The position numbers were made by a program, and so were the translations under genes. This document shows, in pieces, positions 1-5,052 of a stretch of DNA of 5,565 nucleotides. Position 1 is the stretch's first letter; every line of letters begins with the position of its first letter. The stretch spans positions 1 to 5,565 of IMG/VR virus record IMGVR_UViG_2531839474_000014. One strand, 5' to 3'. A model generated the notes under the pieces. That model ran no database searches and was not told where the DNA came from. It saw nothing but the letters and a program-made list of their open reading frames with translations. Source of the stretch: a virus (lineage: Duplodnaviria > Heunggongvirae > Uroviricota > Caudoviricetes).

Positions 1-17
1 TATCGCGCCCTCAACAA

Positions 18-165
18 TGAGTTTTGTGATGCGGTGCCTGGTGCCTCCAGGTGACGTTAACCAGTTAACAATTAACGCCGGATACAGAGAATCCACCCAT
101 AACACTGTTTTTGGTTTTAACTGTTCCGCGTGCGCTTAGCCGCATTCACCGCATCACAAAATTCA
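18..165 (-). repeat. Long-range inverted repeat: arm 18-36 (tgagttttgtgatgcggtg) and arm 147-165 (caccgcatcacaaaattca), 18 of 19 complementary, about 110 bp apart; lies between the DicF terminator and the presumed dicB-like start
   Basis: Reverse complement of 18-36 is caccgcatcacaaaactca, differing from 147-165 at one position. Would form a long stem in a minus-strand read-through transcript. Confidence 0.55.
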
Positions 166-169
166 CTTT

Positions 170-227
170 AAAAAGGGCGGCAGAGCAGTCACGGAGTAAA
201 ACTGATACCGCCAAACGTCACCAGAAA
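170..227 (-). ncRNA. dicF: DicF-like small RNA (53-nt mature species about 175-227 plus U-tail to about 170), cell-division inhibitor sRNA of the dicB operon
   Basis: Minus-strand sequence TTTCTGGTGACGTTTGGCGGTATCAGTTTTACTCCGTGACTGCTCTGCCGCCC followed by TTTTT matches the E. coli DicF sequence as I recall it (53 nt). GGCGG...CCGCC stem plus U-run gives an intrinsic-terminator-like 3' end. Position downstream of ydfC-like gene matches the Qin order ydfABC-dicF-dicB. Confidence 0.75.
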
Positions 228-568
228 ATTGATAACAGAGGGCGTTGCAGCGGGGTTGTCACTTAAGCGTATGGTCAACCTGACAACCCGGTGTCCTCAA
301 CGGGGGAAGGAATAACCCCGCCATACTTACCGCCGCGCCATTTCGCGGATTGCCACAACCGGAAGCGCACGGTCGACGAAAATTTAACGACAGGCTATCT
401 ATGAACCAGCTACCTCGCCGTGCGCTTTCGCGTTATGGTCTGACTTTTCAGGGAAATATCCTTTCAGTAAACTGTCAGTGCCGGATGCTCACCCGTGTCC
501 GGCGCACGCACTCCACCTCACCCGTGGAGAACTCCTTAATTACCAACCTTAGCTTCGTTGGTTAGCTA

Positions 569-787
569 TTAACGCGGGTATGTAATCATTCTGGCAATGC
601 TTAATGCCGCTGCTTTTTCCAGATTGGTGATATCCTGCTCCAGAGAGAACAGATTTTCAGCCTGCTTAGCCCTGGCTTCATTAGCCCATTTCAGATCCTG
701 CGCTGCATTAATTTTCTGGTGCATCCACTCATAAAGTTCATCATCGGTATAGTCTGGCGCGATGATAACGGGTTCTCGTTTCTGCAT
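569..787 (-). CDS. ydfC: Small prophage protein, YdfC-like (72 aa), function unknown
   Basis: ORF with ATG at 787-785 preceded by GAGGAA 5 nt upstream (minus strand). 72 aa, same size and operon position as Qin YdfC. Symbol assigned from size, order and linkage to dicF, not from sequence alignment. Confidence 0.65.
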   Translation of the reverse strand: MQKREPVIIAPDYTDDELYEWMHQKINAAQDLKWANEARAKQAENLFSLEQDITNLEKAAALSIARMITYPR

Positions 788-816
788 ACTGATTCCTCGC
801 GGTGCTGTTTCGCTTA

Positions 817-945
817 TCAGCCGTTAGATTTTGCCGAACTGGAAAGCGCCTGTTTAAATTCGCTGAAGCTGAGAGCTTCTTCGCCTTCGGCAAGGCCTTC
901 GAAGTATTCTTCGTAAGCCTTTTCCATGATTGTGTCGAAATCCAT
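817..945 (-). CDS. ydfB: Small acidic protein, YdfB-like (42 aa: MDFDTIMEKAYEEYFEGLAEGEEALSFSEFKQALSSSAKSNG); not in the supplied ORF track
   Basis: Hand translation of the third minus frame. ATG at 945-943 preceded by AGGTGG with 5-nt spacer; stop at 819-817. Starts 1 nt after the ydfA-like stop. 42 aa matches the size of Qin YdfB. Confidence 0.6.
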   Translation of the reverse strand: MDFDTIMEKAYEEYFEGLAEGEEALSFSEFKQALSSSAKSNG

Positions 946-946
946 A

Positions 947-1102
947 TCACCCACCTGAATTTCTTTCCAGCCAGCGACGCGCTCCAGATTCGGTTTTAAA
1001 CGTTTTGCTTTTGGTATACGTCATTGCGGTGAACGTGCCGTCCTGGTTTGGAAACACGCCGTACACCAGAGATTCGTTGTTGCCAAGATCGATAGTATCC
1101 AT
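947..1102 (-). CDS. ydfA: Small prophage protein, YdfA-like (51 aa: MDTIDLGNNESLVYGVFPNQDGTFTAMTYTKSKTFKTESGARRWLERNSGG)
   Basis: Internal ATG (1102-1100) of the 947-1156 minus ORF has a GAGG RBS 6 nt upstream; the longer form has none. 51 aa matches Qin YdfA size; first gene after the repressor-controlled leftward promoter. Confidence 0.65.
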   Translation of the reverse strand: MDTIDLGNNESLVYGVFPNQDGTFTAMTYTKSKTFKTESGARRWLERNSGG

Positions 1103-1179
1103 GCTGACCTCATTTCCCCTTAACGCCGGGGTAGCGGAACTGTTTGCTGAGAACACCGTGCGGTGTCTTGATGGAAAAT

Positions 1180-1208
1180 AATTTAGAATAACCTAACATG
1201 AGAGGCAA
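1180..1208 (-). promoter_or_regulatory. Putative sigma70 promoter of the leftward ydfA-ydfB-ydfC-dicF operon (minus strand -35 TTGCCT at 1208-1203, 17-bp spacer, -10 TAAATT at 1185-1180)
   Basis: Hexamers read on the minus strand, each 4 of 6 to consensus. Flanked and overlapped by operator-like TTAG-N6-CTAA sites. Inferred from sequence only. Confidence 0.4.
1183..1196. promoter_or_regulatory. Operator-like site TTAGaataacCTAA overlapping the -10 of the leftward promoter
   Basis: Shares the TTAG-N6-CTAA core with three other sites around the repressor gene. Confidence 0.45.
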
Positions 1209-1215
1209 GTGTTTT

Positions 1216-1235
1216 TTGTTAGATTGATCTAACAA
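1216..1235. promoter_or_regulatory. Perfect palindrome TTGTTAGAT-tg-ATCTAACAA (9-bp arms), candidate repressor operator upstream of the leftward promoter
   Basis: Perfect dyad symmetry seen directly. Core TTAG-N6-CTAA at 1219-1232. Near-identical half-sites recur at 1728-1745 in the dicA-dicC intergenic region. Confidence 0.6.
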
Positions 1236-1270
1236 AAAGGGTGGGCGCAACTAATCACTTGAAAAGAATG

Positions 1271-1678
1271 TTATTTTATTGATTTATTTTTACGCGCTTT
1301 AAGCATTTCTTCGAAGAGTTTGTTGAAGTTTTCTACTCTTGCGCGCATTTCAGACAGCAAGGCTTCCTGCTCGGAAGATGGAAGAGCATCGAATAATTCG
1401 ATCAATTCTTTGTGGTTGGGAGTTAGCTCTGTTTCCACATGAAGTTCTTGTGCAGGCACTGGTGCCTTGTCTTCGTCACCAAACATTAGCCATGTAGGTG
1501 AGCACTTCAGAGCATCCGCTAAAGCAAACAATCGTTTTCCGACTGGCTGGGTTTCGTCTCTTTCCCATTGTGAAATTGTGACGTGAGCAACTCCAGCGAG
1601 GCGCGCGGCTTCTCGTTGTGTTAAGCGTAATTCTTTTCGTCGCGCCAGAACTCGCTGGCCCAGGGTTCTTGTATCCAT
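1271..1678 (-). CDS. dicA: DicA-like XRE-family HTH repressor (CI analogue), 135 aa
   Basis: N-terminal HTH (LRLTQREAARLAGVAHVTISQWERDETQP) and C-terminal half (CSPTW..FGDEDK ... EMRARVENFNKLFEEMLKARK) closely resemble E. coli DicA as recalled, same 135-aa length. The HTH recognition region differs, suggesting different operator specificity. Divergent from a Cro-like gene. Confidence 0.9.
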   Translation of the reverse strand: MDTRTLGQRVLARRKELRLTQREAARLAGVAHVTISQWERDETQPVGKRLFALADALKCSPTWLMFGDEDKAPVPAQELHVETELTPNHKELIELFDALPSSEQEALLSEMRARVENFNKLFEEMLKARKNKSIK

Positions 1679-1680
1679 AG

Positions 1681-1694
1681 TTAGGTAATTCTAA
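1681..1694. promoter_or_regulatory. Operator-like site TTAGgtaattCTAA next to the repressor start codon; overlaps a -10-like TAGAAT on the minus strand
   Basis: TTAG-N6-CTAA core. Minus-strand TAGAAT (complement of 1688-1693) sits 9 nt upstream of the dicA-like ATG, with no Shine-Dalgarno between. Confidence 0.4.
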
Positions 1695-1700
1695 TTTTTC

Positions 1701-1728
1701 TTGACTTAGGTATCCCGCGCACAATAAT
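1701..1728 (+). promoter_or_regulatory. Putative rightward promoter for the Cro-like gene (-35 TTGACT 1701-1706, 16-bp spacer, -10 AATAAT 1723-1728)
   Basis: -35 is 5 of 6 and -10 is 5 of 6 to consensus. The operator palindrome at 1728-1745 overlaps the -10 and predicted start site. Confidence 0.5.
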
Positions 1729-1745
1729 GTTAGAAAAGTCTAACA
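1728..1745. promoter_or_regulatory. Operator palindrome TGTTAG-aaaagt-CTAACA overlapping the rightward promoter
   Basis: Perfect 6-bp inverted arms with the same TGTTAG/CTAACA half-sites as the 1216-1235 palindrome. Confidence 0.6.
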
Positions 1746-1758
1746 AGAGGGGGATTTG

Positions 1759-1986
1759 ATGCTTAAAGTTGACGCAATTACTTTTTTTGGCAGCAAAACA
1801 AAGCTTGCCAATGCCGCAGGAGTGAGGCTGGCAAGTGTTGCTGCTTGGGGGATACTGGTTCCTGAAGGTCGCGCGATGCGTCTACAGGAGGCATCTGGCG
1901 GGGAGCTTCAGTATGATCCCAAAGTTTATGATGAATATCGTAAGACGAAGCGGGCGGGGCGGTTGAACAATGAAAATCACTCCTGA
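1759..1986 (+). CDS. dicC: Cro-like small DNA-binding protein (DicC analogue), about 75 aa
   Basis: Divergent from the repressor. ATG at 1759 with GAGGGGG RBS 5 nt upstream; the ORF-track start at 1756 is a TTG. Small basic protein in the Cro position. Symbol by position, not by verified alignment. Confidence 0.7.
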   Translation: MLKVDAITFFGSKTKLANAAGVRLASVAAWGILVPEGRAMRLQEASGGELQYDPKVYDEYRKTKRAGRLNNENHS

Positions 1987-2491
1987 ACAGGCTCGTGAGG
2001 CTCTGGATGCCTGGATATGTCGACCAGGAATGACACAGGAGCAGGCGACGATATTAATCACTGAAGCATTCTGGGCTTTGAAAGAGCGCCCGAACATCGA
2101 TGTTCAGCGTGTCACAGATGAAGGTGGCGCGGTTGATCAGCGAGCGCTTGGTGTTAATCGAGTGAAGATATTCGAACGCTGGAAGGCTATCGACACCAGG
2201 GATAAGCGTGAAAAGTTCACGGCGCTAGTGCCTGCGATTATGGAGGCTATCCGGATTAGTGATTTCAGGTTGTATCGTGAAATTACTGACGGAAAAAGCA
2301 TCACGTGCATGATCGCCGGGTTAAACAAAGAATATGGCGATGTGGTGGAGTCCGGACTGCTTTTTGCTGATCCTGCCGTAGTGGATCGTGAAACTGACGA
2401 ACTTATAGAAAAAGCAATTGCTTTCAAGCTTGCGTATCGACAGCAATACCAACAAAAAGCTGGATGGAATTATGAGCCTTCTTTTTGCTGA
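1970..2491 (+). CDS. YdaT-like protein (CII-analogue family), 173 aa
   Basis: Overlaps the Cro-like stop by 17 nt, suggesting translational coupling. The segment WKAIDTRDKREKFTALVPAIMEAIRISDFRLY resembles Rac YdaT (WLKGETKTQREKIQKLIPAILAILPRELRHRL) as recalled. Sits where CII would in a lambdoid layout. Confidence 0.6.
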   Translation: MKITPEQAREALDAWICRPGMTQEQATILITEAFWALKERPNIDVQRVTDEGGAVDQRALGVNRVKIFERWKAIDTRDKREKFTALVPAIMEAIRISDFRLYREITDGKSITCMIAGLNKEYGDVVESGLLFADPAVVDRETDELIEKAIAFKLAYRQQYQQKAGWNYEPSFC

Positions 2492-3437
2492 ACGCCCACT
2501 GGTTATAAACACGCAGCTGGCAATGAAAATTGGCTTAAACGAAGCCATTGTTTTGCAACAACTGCACTACTGGTTGAGAGATACCAACTCCGGCATGGAA
2601 TGTGATGGTGTTCGCTGGATTTATAACACAACGGAACAATGGCTGGAACAGTTCCCATTCTGGTCAGAGTCAACGTTAAAGCGCGCGTTTGCAAGTCTGA
2701 AAACGCTGGGGCTTTTGCGTTGTGAAAAGCTCAATAAATCAAAGCGCGATATGACCAATTTCTACACGATCAACTATGGGAGCGAGCTTTTAGATGGTGG
2801 CAAATTGAGCGAATCCATCGGTTCAAAATGCGCCGCTCCATCAGGTCAAAATGACACGATGGAAGAGGTCAAAATGAAACGCTCCATTGGTTCAAAACGA
2901 CTCAATGTCATCGGGTCAAAATGGCCTGATGATCTTACAGAGAATACAACAGAGATTACTACAGAGAATAAAAAGACTTCTCGTCCGGAAGCTTCGCAAC
3001 CGGACCCGCAGACGGTTGAACAGGATTTTTTAACCCGACACCCTGACGCGGTTGTGTTCAGTGCGAAAAAACGCCAGTGGGGCAGCCAGGAAGATTTGGC
3101 GTGTGCGCAGTGGATCTGGGGGCGAATCGTGAGTCTTTACGAGCAGGCCGCCAGCGATGATGGCGAGATTTCGCGACCGAAAGAACCCAACTGGACCGCA
3201 TGGGCCAACGACGTGCGCACAATGCGGATGCTGGATGGCAGAACTCACAGACAAATTTGTGAAATGTTTGGTCGGGTGCAGCGGGATCCATTCTGGGTAA
3301 AAAATATCATGAGTCCGTCAAAGCTTCGCGAAAAATGGGATGAACTGGTTATCCGCCTGGGGCGTTCGTCTGTACAGCGTTGTGTGAATCATATTTCTGA
3401 GCCGGATACCGAAATTCCGCCGGGCTTCAGGGGGTAA
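2472..3437 (+). CDS. Phage replication initiation protein (lambda-O-like organisation) with internal origin and DnaT-like C-terminal tail, 321 aa from the first ATG (alternative TTG start at 2418)
   Basis: Iterons and an AT-rich repeat block lie inside the coding sequence, as in lambda O. C-terminus VNHISEPDTEIPPGFRG matches the C-terminus of E. coli primosomal protein DnaT (...VNTVSEPDSQIPPGFRG) as recalled. Confidence 0.8.
   Translation: MSLLFAERPLVINTQLAMKIGLNEAIVLQQLHYWLRDTNSGMECDGVRWIYNTTEQWLEQFPFWSESTLKRAFASLKTLGLLRCEKLNKSKRDMTNFYTINYGSELLDGGKLSESIGSKCAAPSGQNDTMEEVKMKRSIGSKRLNVIGSKWPDDLTENTTEITTENKKTSRPEASQPDPQTVEQDFLTRHPDAVVFSAKKRQWGSQEDLACAQWIWGRIVSLYEQAASDDGEISRPKEPNWTAWANDVRTMRMLDGRTHRQICEMFGRVQRDPFWVKNIMSPSKLREKWDELVIRLGRSSVQRCVNHISEPDTEIPPGFRG
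2814..2923. repeat. Five direct iterons with core GGT(T/C)CAAAA(T/C)G, ending at 2830, 2853, 2876, 2899 and 2923 (23-24 bp phasing); putative phage origin inside the initiator gene
   Basis: tCCATCGGTTCAAAATG, tCCATCAGGTCAAAATG, gaAGAGGTCAAAATG, tCCATTGGTTCAAAACG, gtCATCGGGTCAAAATG. They encode repeated SIGSK-type peptides in the protein. Confidence 0.75.
2937..2970. repeat. Three 12-bp-phased A+T-rich repeats ACAGAGA(A/T)TA just right of the iterons; candidate DNA-unwinding element
   Basis: ACAGAGAATA at 2937, ACAGAGATTA at 2949, ACAGAGAATA at 2961. Position relative to the iterons mirrors the lambda origin. Confidence 0.55.
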
Positions 3438-3477
3438 GTGTTAATTTCTGGTCATGAGGTAATTTTCAGGAGGGCTT

Positions 3478-3900
3478 GTGGCAAAAGTTTTTACACAAGA
3501 AGAGCGGGAAAAAATTAAAGGGCAGGTTGTTGAACTCGTACGCCGGAGTGGGCGTGAGACGTTACGGCAACTGGAAGTCAAGACAGGTGCGACAAGATAT
3601 CTGATGAGCGTTCTCGCAAGAGAGCTGGTTGCCAGCGGCGATGTATACAACTCTGGTTACGGGTTATTCCCGTCTGAACAGGCGCGTAAGGACTGGCAAA
3701 ATGCCCGTAAAAAGCTCTCAAGGGCAAAGCTGAAGGAACCATCTGCGGTTGATCCGGACCTTATCTGGTCATTACCTGACGGAGAAATACGTCGCTACGA
3801 CAGGCGTCAGAACATAATCTGTCGCGAGTGCCGGAAGAGTGAAGTTATGCAGCGCATACTAGCATTCTATCAGGGAAATGCTCGATATTTATTGAAGTGA
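3478..3900 (+). CDS. Hypothetical prophage protein, 140 aa, GTG start; possible winged-helix-like N-terminus
   Basis: AGGAGG RBS at 3468-3473 upstream of GTG 3478. Composition matches the neighbouring phage genes. Ends with tandem stops TGA TGA. No family recognised. Confidence 0.65.
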   Translation: MAKVFTQEEREKIKGQVVELVRRSGRETLRQLEVKTGATRYLMSVLARELVASGDVYNSGYGLFPSEQARKDWQNARKKLSRAKLKEPSAVDPDLIWSLPDGEIRRYDRRQNIICRECRKSEVMQRILAFYQGNARYLLK

Positions 3901-4082
3901 TGAGATTAAAGTTTATTAGTTCAGATATTGATTGGCTCTTTTGTGGAGTAGGGTAGAGTTAGTGTGTTTGTCTGCTTGGTGCCAGCAGCGGATATGTTTA
4001 ACAACAGAAAGCATTCAGCATGGTTAGTGGATTTGCAAAGTGGATTAGGATTTGAGAAACTTTGATGAAGTTGTAAAGCTTG

Positions 4083-4117
4083 TTTCTATAAAAATAGAAA
4101 TTTAACTAATAGTTAAA
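4083..4117. promoter_or_regulatory. Two adjacent A+T-rich palindromes (TTTCTAT-aaaa-ATAGAAA at 4083-4100; TTTAACT-aat-AGTTAAA at 4101-4117) about 35-70 bp upstream of the orphan ORF; candidate operator or promoter region
   Basis: Perfect 7-bp inverted arms seen directly. Followed by AAGGA RBS (4139-4143) and ATG at 4153. Confidence 0.35.
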
Positions 4118-4152
4118 CACACCTCCAGCTTCATTGAAAAGGATTATTAGCT

Positions 4153-5052
4153 ATGATTGATCCACTTATTAGAAACTTACAGAGTGATATTGCACTACTC
4201 CAGCTTTATATCGCGCAACGCAAACAGGCAGGCTTTCATGACATGGAAAGAATAATTGAGTCATTGACCATCTTTATGTTTCGCGCGCTGAAAATGGGTG
4301 AACTGGTAAACATGAATCAGATTAAAGTTAATTTTCCCGCCATTGATTTAGCTGATAATAAAAACATGATAGCAGTTCAAGTTACTACGAATGCAAGTCC
4401 AGCAAAAATTAAAAAAACTATCGAATCTTTTGAGAAAATAAATGAAATAGGAGAGAGTCTGAAAGATAAATACTCTACTTTATATATTTTTGGTTTTTGT
4501 AAAGCCTCAAGATACCTAACTCCAAGTTATTGTAAAATAATCGACCCCAGCTATTTCGTGAATGAACTTTGCGATAAAGCAGATGAAGATATGGTCCAGG
4601 ATATGATTGACGCCATTCGACGCCATCATGATTATACATCATTACATCCATGGAGTGATAAAGATTCACTCGAAATTATACTCAATATTATTAATCGCAA
4701 TGCAATAAAACATCGGATGAGTTGCGAAGGCAGTCTGTCTGATATGCTCACTGGTTTAAAAGAAATTAATGAAGTAATTACAAAAGGAACAATTCAACGT
4801 AAGCAACGTTCAAAATCGATATCTGACTTCAAAGATCAAAGCATGGTGAAATTTATGAGAGGTGTAATGGATGATTTGTCTGTTATTCAAGCCATAGTGA
4901 ACAAATCTAAAGTTAACCAAGGTGATATGGTTTATATAAGCCATGAAGATATGATTAATATTGATAAATTAAAAGCTAAAATAGCAAGTGATTCATCAGA
5001 GATTGCAAGGCTAAATAATATTGATATAACACTAAATGTTGTTGATTTATAA
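4153..5052 (+). CDS. Orphan low-GC protein, 299 aa, function unknown; candidate accessory (defence or abortive-infection type) gene
   Basis: Long uninterrupted ORF with AAGGA RBS 9 nt upstream. G+C roughly 30-35 percent by eye against about 50 percent in flanking genes. No catalytic motif recognised. N-terminal segment NFPAIDLADNKNMIAVQVTTNASPAKIKK loosely recalls N-terminal domains of conflict-system proteins (unverified). Confidence 0.8.
   Translation: MIDPLIRNLQSDIALLQLYIAQRKQAGFHDMERIIESLTIFMFRALKMGELVNMNQIKVNFPAIDLADNKNMIAVQVTTNASPAKIKKTIESFEKINEIGESLKDKYSTLYIFGFCKASRYLTPSYCKIIDPSYFVNELCDKADEDMVQDMIDAIRRHHDYTSLHPWSDKDSLEIILNIINRNAIKHRMSCEGSLSDMLTGLKEINEVITKGTIQRKQRSKSISDFKDQSMVKFMRGVMDDLSVIQAIVNKSKVNQGDMVYISHEDMINIDKLKAKIASDSSEIARLNNIDITLNVVDL

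Follow-up and report, generated by a model that had tools for sequence, protein, structure and literature searches.

The question raised by this locus is whether a viral stretch of 5565 nucleotides (IMG/VR record IMGVR_UViG_2531839474_000014, positions 1–5565; hereafter the window) carries a genuine gene for the cell-division-inhibitor RNA DicF, and what follows from its presence beside a replication module. A search of the whole window with Rfam cmscan returned one match above threshold, to DicF (RF00039), at 226–175 on the minus strand. Its E-value is 3.1e-16 and its score 76.7 bits, the gathering score being 48; the match spans model positions 1–52 of 52. Alignment of window 175–227 (minus strand) with the annotated 53-nt dicF gene of K-12 MG1655 (b1574) revealed identity at 53 of 53 positions. 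The identity continues into the flanks for some 75 nt upstream and 23 nt downstream, and the reverse complement of window 1–570 shows a mean column identity of 99% to the K-12 Qin prophage. Immediately after the gene, at 170–174 on the same strand, the sequence reads as the U5 tail of an intrinsic terminator, which is identical in K-12. A preliminary description of this DNA had placed an intact DicF with its terminator at 170–227 of the minus strand and had proposed alignment to the Rfam model and to K-12 dicF. Those alignments gave the full-model match and the 53/53 identity reported above, and its interval is exact, comprising dicF at 175–227 and the U5 tail at 170–174.

Folding of the RNA places a 3′ stem–loop, the terminator hairpin, at 176–212 (minus strand) in both the minimum free energy and the centroid structures, in agreement with the Rfam consensus structure. 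The predicted energy of this hairpin is −15.9 kcal/mol, and it is followed by UUUUU at 170–174. Taken alone, the energy is unexceptional, with z = −1.6 and 16 of 200 shuffled sequences folding equally well, and a simple terminator scan did not flag the terminator, probably on account of its 9-nt loop and bulges. Both results would suit a GC-rich hairpin that had arisen by chance and is not DicF at all. We nevertheless reject this explanation entirely in the face of the covariance E-value of 3e-16, the complete identity to the K-12 gene and the conserved synteny described below; the identification rests on covariance score and sequence identity and not on fold statistics. We conclude that window 175–227 (minus strand) is almost certainly a bona fide dicF gene, and that it belongs to the early-left operon (PL-like) of a lambdoid prophage of the Qin family.

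Comparison of 11 copies of dicF revealed that the single-stranded 5′ region is invariant; the sole variant has its change at the final base of the 53-mer. RNAduplex analysis of DicF against K-12 ftsZ (−60 to +30) predicts pairing from −29 to +25 with an energy of −38.5 kcal/mol; as 75 of 1000 shuffled versions of DicF do equally well, this energy does not discriminate. Pairing of the K-12 RNA, which is identical, with ftsZ has been shown experimentally (PMC5069750). K-12 DicF acts with Hfq to block translation of ftsZ, xylR and pykA, leading to filamentation; expressed alone, it represses these three genes in trans, as compensatory mutants confirm (PMC5069750). The 3′ end of the K-12 RNA arises either by Rho-independent termination (53 nt) or through RNase III (72 nt) (PMC5069750), and processing of the dicBF transcript by RNase III as well as RNase E has been reported (PMC10448788).

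The hairpin and its U5 tail lie between ydfC and dicB, and it could be argued that they act mainly in cis, as a terminator or attenuator limiting read-through into the toxic dicB–ydfD genes, with the sRNA as a by-product. The formation of the K-12 53-nt 3′ end by Rho-independent termination accords with such a role, as does the strongly structured character of the flanking RNA: the untranslated stretch from ydfC to dicB (window 1–568, minus strand) folds with −219.8 kcal/mol (z = −4.9), and none of 100 shuffled sequences does as well. A mainly cis-acting hairpin is, however, hard to square with repression in trans by K-12 DicF alone, or with the invariance across the 11 copies of a 5′ single-stranded region that a terminator does not need, and we consider it highly improbable. 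Roles as cis-terminator and as trans-acting sRNA are in any case compatible and not exclusive.

The genes surrounding dicF are those of the K-12 operon. Upstream of it and on the same strand lie ydfA (947–1102; 51 aa, 98% amino acid identity to K-12 YdfA; Pfam DUF1391, E = 2e-28), ydfB (817–945; 42 aa, 100% identity to K-12 YdfB) and ydfC (569–787; 72 aa, 95.8% identity to K-12 YdfC; PHROG 1744), so that the position first proposed for DicF, downstream of genes of the sizes of these three, is matched by identities of 95.8–100% to the K-12 proteins. On the other side, alignment with K-12 and with the prophage of strain PE164 shows that window base 1 is the last base ahead of the dicB ATG; dicB itself is beyond the window. 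In 8 of 10 comparison loci containing the exact 53-mer, dicB starts 174 nt past DicF, exactly the length that the window holds there. The suspicion that DicB is encoded just beyond the window start is therefore upheld, the gene following base 1 directly in K-12 and PE164 and being equally far from DicF in another six related loci. Many public assemblies contain exactly the YdfC variant found in the window. Six contigs with this variant were inspected, and in each of them dicB, ydfD and a predicted excisionase gene are found beyond ydfC; an 823-aa exonuclease gene is called in five of them, and an integrase gene or rspB comes next wherever the sequence reaches. Related prophages adjoin rspB, which marks the attachment site of Qin.

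The spacer between ydfC and dicF (228–568, minus strand; 341 nt) is untranslated, is about 98% identical to K-12 and constitutes the DicF precursor region; its sole annotated function is as the site of RNase III and RNase E processing. Short open reading frames on the plus strand at 111–266, 291–404 and 350–565 run over the dicF region; they were treated as spurious, since in K-12 this part of the dicBF transcript is untranslated precursor. In some phage records, open reading frames overlapping the dicF region are labelled as hypothetical proteins.

Alignment with K-12 and PE164, together with predicted folds, delineates the dicF–dicB spacer (1–169, minus strand), which is the dicB leader. A long-range helix of some 20 bp, in which 147–167 pairs with 16–36, is predicted to close it. 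The published 3′ end of the 72-nt form of DicF corresponds to window position ~156, inside this predicted helix, a location that fits cleavage by RNase III. Three single-nucleotide differences from K-12 fall in the helix: those at 151 and 33 convert U·G and G·U pairs to C-G and G-C, and that at 21 breaks one pair. As a separate observation, window 23–163 (minus strand) gives a sub-threshold Rfam match to STnc100 (38.8 bits, E = 5.7e-6; gathering score, 47), and a full STnc100 copy scoring 100.8 bits is present in the late region of the PE164 prophage (locus positions 20796–20968).

Control of the operon was addressed through the immunity region. The repressor gene (1271–1678, minus strand) encodes a DicA-like HTH_3 protein of 135 aa, a diverged allele with 58.6% amino acid identity to K-12 DicA and 100% identity to the repressors of strain YZMc17-1 and other public genomes, GCA_019297545.1 among them. 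The DicC-like Cro protein (1759–1986, plus strand; P22_Cro, E = 5e-12) is 86.7% identical to K-12 DicC, from which it differs at the N-terminus, the C-terminus being identical. The pairing of these two alleles is common, the identical pair recurring in YZMc17-1 and in other public genomes. A search for the pattern TGTTAG-N6-CTAACA found two matches in the window, against 0.01 expected; supported by alignment, these are the operators TGTTAGATTGATCTAACA at 1217–1234, upstream of the inferred promoter, and TGTTAGAAAAGTCTAACA at 1728–1745, at the position of K-12 Oc. DicA binds the K-12 operator, TTGTTAGTCATAACTAACAA, and one change in a half-site inactivates it (PMC3441716). Both window operators share its half-sites, TGTTAG and CTAACA, and differ from it only in the central 6 nt.

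Alignment with the K-12 dicA–ydfA intergenic region suggests a promoter equivalent to dicBp at 1180–1208 on the minus strand, with a −35 element TTGCCT (1203–1208), a 17-nt spacer and a −10 element TAAATT (1180–1185); a consensus promoter scan of the window did not flag it. A second, half-conserved operator-like site at 1181–1198 overlaps the −10 element and spacer. The repressor gene and operator sites thus flank this region, in keeping with the DicA-controlled promoter claimed at the outset. The accompanying claim of a different immunity region holds in part. The repressor indeed has no more than 58.6% identity to DicA, and Cro is different at its N-terminus, but the operators keep the half-sites of K-12 Oc, and for that reason we do not equate the difference with heteroimmunity; as judged by sequence, it is in the protein alleles that a difference is seen, and heteroimmunity may or may not follow from it. 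Repressor alleles may diverge without change in core DNA specificity. Since the repressor has so limited an identity to DicA, the inducing signals and the sensitivity to Rem may differ from those in K-12.

The right arm reveals what K-12 Qin has lost. A CII-like gene of the YdaT family (1970–2491, plus strand; 173 aa; PHROG 163, E = 3e-40) follows cro, and K-12 YdfX corresponds to amino acids 1–93 of its product with 97.8% identity. Similarity to K-12 ends at window position ~2249, which marks the Qin deletion breakpoint (K-12 ydfX occupies 4347–4637 of the K-12 region compared). In Qin, dicC is followed by ydfX alone, a truncated CII/YdaT-like gene, and there are no replication genes, as the preliminary description had stated. 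In the window, the CII-like gene is followed by a gene for an O-like replication initiator (2472–3437, plus strand; PHROG 391 ‘replication initiation O-like’, E = 4.9e-95), whose product, compared along its entire length, is 96–96.6% identical to the O proteins that phages PhiR42_1 and mEp460_ev081 encode. Within this gene, at 2800–2931 (plus strand), five iterons with the core G[G/T]TCAAAA[T/C]G recur at intervals of 23–24 bp and form a putative origin. A lambda-type origin calls for at least four iterons at helical-repeat spacing inside the initiator gene, and this array has five, in line with the earlier description of the initiator as containing an origin. A short direct repeat, TACAGAGAATA(C/A)AA, occurs after the iterons at 2936–2973. 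After the O-like gene, the window has no separate gene for a helicase loader, and neither have mEp460_ev081 and PhiR42_1. Next comes a DUF977/LygF (Ren-like) gene (3478–3900, plus strand; Pfam DUF977, E = 2e-30; PHROG 142).

The early-right genes, namely those for Cro, the CII-like protein, the O-like protein with its iterons and LygF, are contiguous with the dicF arm, and the window therefore represents the undeleted form of the Qin family. Because ydfX is a remnant of the CII-like gene, K-12 Qin is, on this sequence comparison, a deletion derivative that has lost the genes past codon 93 of that gene, and plainly one of a family still extant as isolated phages.

Similarity to phage records stops between 3879 and 3992. 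Here, a low-GC island begins (~3900–5350; 30–35% GC in the GC profile), which holds a gene for a 299-aa SMEK-domain protein (4153–5052, plus strand; SMEK_N, E = 2e-22). The foreign island of the preliminary description is recognisable in it, window 3900–5250 having a GC content of 30–35%. Amino acids 8–146 of the SMEK protein match the PADLOC defence-candidate model Aga_REase-PNTD1-PNTD2 (E = 1.4e-20). The island is variable cargo, filling a slot past LygF that in other relatives is taken by a methyltransferase gene or other genes. Just beyond it, at 5351–5565 (minus strand), is the end of an IS1414 element (IS256 family), 99.5–100% identical to annotated IS1414 and matching the C-terminus of a transposase in PHROGs; it replaces the methyltransferase gene of relatives. 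The junction of the SMEK island with IS1414 was found in none of 5426 complete Escherichia coli genomes.

With the end of IS1414 at its right edge, the window element may be defective. One might go further and regard the dicF locus as a silent relic, with the prophage defective, the operon locked off and no role in the strain. The IS1414 end, its junction unmatched among complete E. coli genomes, and the tight repression of K-12 dicBp in standard conditions (PMC10448788) would all be consistent with this. However, the eight non-IS coding sequences are all of full length and free of frameshifts relative to isolated phages, and even the cryptic K-12 copy still yields DicF in stationary phase, dicBp being on in ~1% of ΔdicBF reporter cells (PMC10448788). 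On balance, we regard a silent relic as unlikely.

The linkage of dicF to replication genes might appear novel, and the preliminary description implied as much in presenting the locus as a mosaic. The survey of genomes does not sustain this. Of 5426 complete E. coli genomes, 3969 contain a 71-nt stretch with dicF, in up to seven places per genome. Window 1–3440, from dicF through the O-like gene, has a single contiguous counterpart, with coverage of at least 80%, in 834 complete E. coli genomes, a BL21(DE3) derivative among them; for the whole window, coverage of 80% or more is reached in 117 complete genomes, at ~97–98% identity. Among deposited phage records, dicF occurs in 22 at ≥98.7% identity, and at least 120 viral contigs of IMG/VR have the exact DicF 53-mer. 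A 100% match to the window is absent both from 120 such IMG/VR loci and from the complete E. coli genomes, and an exact 40-mer of its left edge has no match in the species-representative genomes of GTDB. In the complete Tritos phage genome, a misc_RNA is already annotated as ‘DicF antisense sRNA, inhibits ftsZ’; it lies between ydfC and dicB, on an arm that also encodes a replication protein and a CI/Cro pair. An E. coli-type dicF (98.7% identity) also appears at 249906–249983 in the 254-kb record of Aeromonas phage AP1 (MT713136.1), possibly through contamination or chimeric assembly.

The arrangement of dicF with replication genes is thus already known and is common in genomes and isolated phages. 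The mosaic is that of a standard lambdoid phage, with a conserved left arm, exchangeable immunity alleles and, past LygF, a slot for variable cargo. Prophage sequences resembling dicF were reportedly first surveyed by Faubladier and Bouché in 1994. Retention of the dicBF locus in many prophages, with several copies in O157:H7, is documented (PMC5069750; PMC7873438). The gene is annotated in K-12; it is unannotated beneath all ten of the RefSeq E. coli matches listed, which carry PGAP-style annotation. The window serves as a reminder that dicF is routinely missed in annotation and is otherwise of little weight.

Given an RNA identical to DicF of K-12, the K-12 mechanism can be expected to transfer to the window locus. 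Its identity, structure, synteny and operators are observed here; its expression, processing and effect in the window's strain are extrapolated from K-12. The DicA-like repressor would bind the TGTTAG-N6-CTAACA operators and hold the promoter at ~1180–1208 off. Derepression, whether through the Rem antirepressor, a bistable flip to DicC/Cro or stress, would yield a polycistronic RNA from which RNase III and RNase E would excise DicF, the 3′ end being set either by the intrinsic terminator (53 nt) or by an RNase III cut at window ~156 (72 nt). Together with Hfq, DicF would then pair with the translation-initiation region of ftsZ, and with xylR and pykA, so that FtsZ synthesis and division would be blocked, and read-through RNA would supply DicB. 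In K-12, repression of dicBp by DicA is relieved by Rem, by a spontaneous DicA/DicC switch, and by urea or heat (PMC10448788).

Comparison with K-12 Qin (dicF, b1574) reveals a shared 53-nt sequence, terminator and immediate flanks, the ydfA–ydfB–ydfC–dicF–dicB operon and the operator half-sites. Qin differs in that its right arm is deleted past codon 93 of the CII-like gene, so that it is without the O-like gene, LygF and the SMEK island, and in the limited identity of DicA to the window repressor noted above. The closest relatives are the Qin-site prophages of YZMc17-1, PE164 and about 115 other complete genomes, which match the window up to 5354 at ~97–98%, SMEK island included. The YZMc17-1 prophage, with repressor and Cro identical to those of the window, adjoins rspB. 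Prophages of the YZMc17-1/PE164 type do not have IS1414 at this right end; instead, the SMEK gene is succeeded by a gene for a methyltransferase and a hypothetical gene. In EHEC O157:H7 (EDL933 CP-933 and the corresponding Sakai prophages), dicF is present in multiple copies and dicBF resides on large lambdoid prophages other than Qin (PMC5069750, PMC7873438). EHEC DicF also activates pchA and, in consequence, the LEE virulence genes.

Independent decay of the Qin-type family can be seen in a relative, GCA_019297545.1 (4348–7858). Here, a deletion has removed the segment equivalent to window 2178–3657, so that the CII-like gene has lost its end, LygF its start, and the O gene is gone. Between dicF and dicB, at the equivalent of window 114–124, stands an inserted gene for a 324-aa transposase-like protein; since this protein has HTH_38 and rve domains, the insert is probably an IS30-family element. 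The insertion uncouples dicB from the operon.

The isolated temperate coliphages that carry dicF, Tritos (OV696610), PhiR42_1 (PV340562), mEp460_ev081 (LR597641), HannyBb and others, share with the window the int–xis–exo–ydfD–dicB–dicF–ydfCBA left arm, a repressor/Cro pair and the CII-like, O-like and LygF genes. DicF of both PhiR42_1 and mEp460_ev081 scores 76.7 bits. These phages differ in their immunity alleles, the repressors of PhiR42_1 and mEp460_ev081 being 50–56% identical to that of the window, and have a methyltransferase gene or other genes past LygF, not SMEK. mEp460, Tritos and PhiR42_1 would offer natural systems in which the role of DicF and DicB in phage growth can be studied outside a cryptic remnant.

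The early-left operons of other lambdoid elements offer a further parallel. Lambda Kil and Rac KilR are early-left-operon products that block host division through FtsZ upon loss of the repressor. We tentatively suggest, as a possibility short of an even chance, that in replication-competent Qin-family phages DicF and DicB together constitute the phages' own Kil-like division block, and that the STnc100-related spacer RNA regulates dicB. The block may operate from the early-left position during lytic growth in mEp460, Tritos and PhiR42_1, and possibly in the window element. The spacer may be a conserved structured RNA in which the long closing helix that is predicted links cleavage by RNase III to the expression of dicB. 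Neither suggestion is specific to the window. If the former is true, the functions ascribed to DicF and DicB of the K-12 ‘cryptic prophage’ are the relic of a lytic role. The resemblance would be one of position and effect, Kil and KilR being proteins unrelated in sequence to DicF, itself an antisense RNA that targets the translation of ftsZ.
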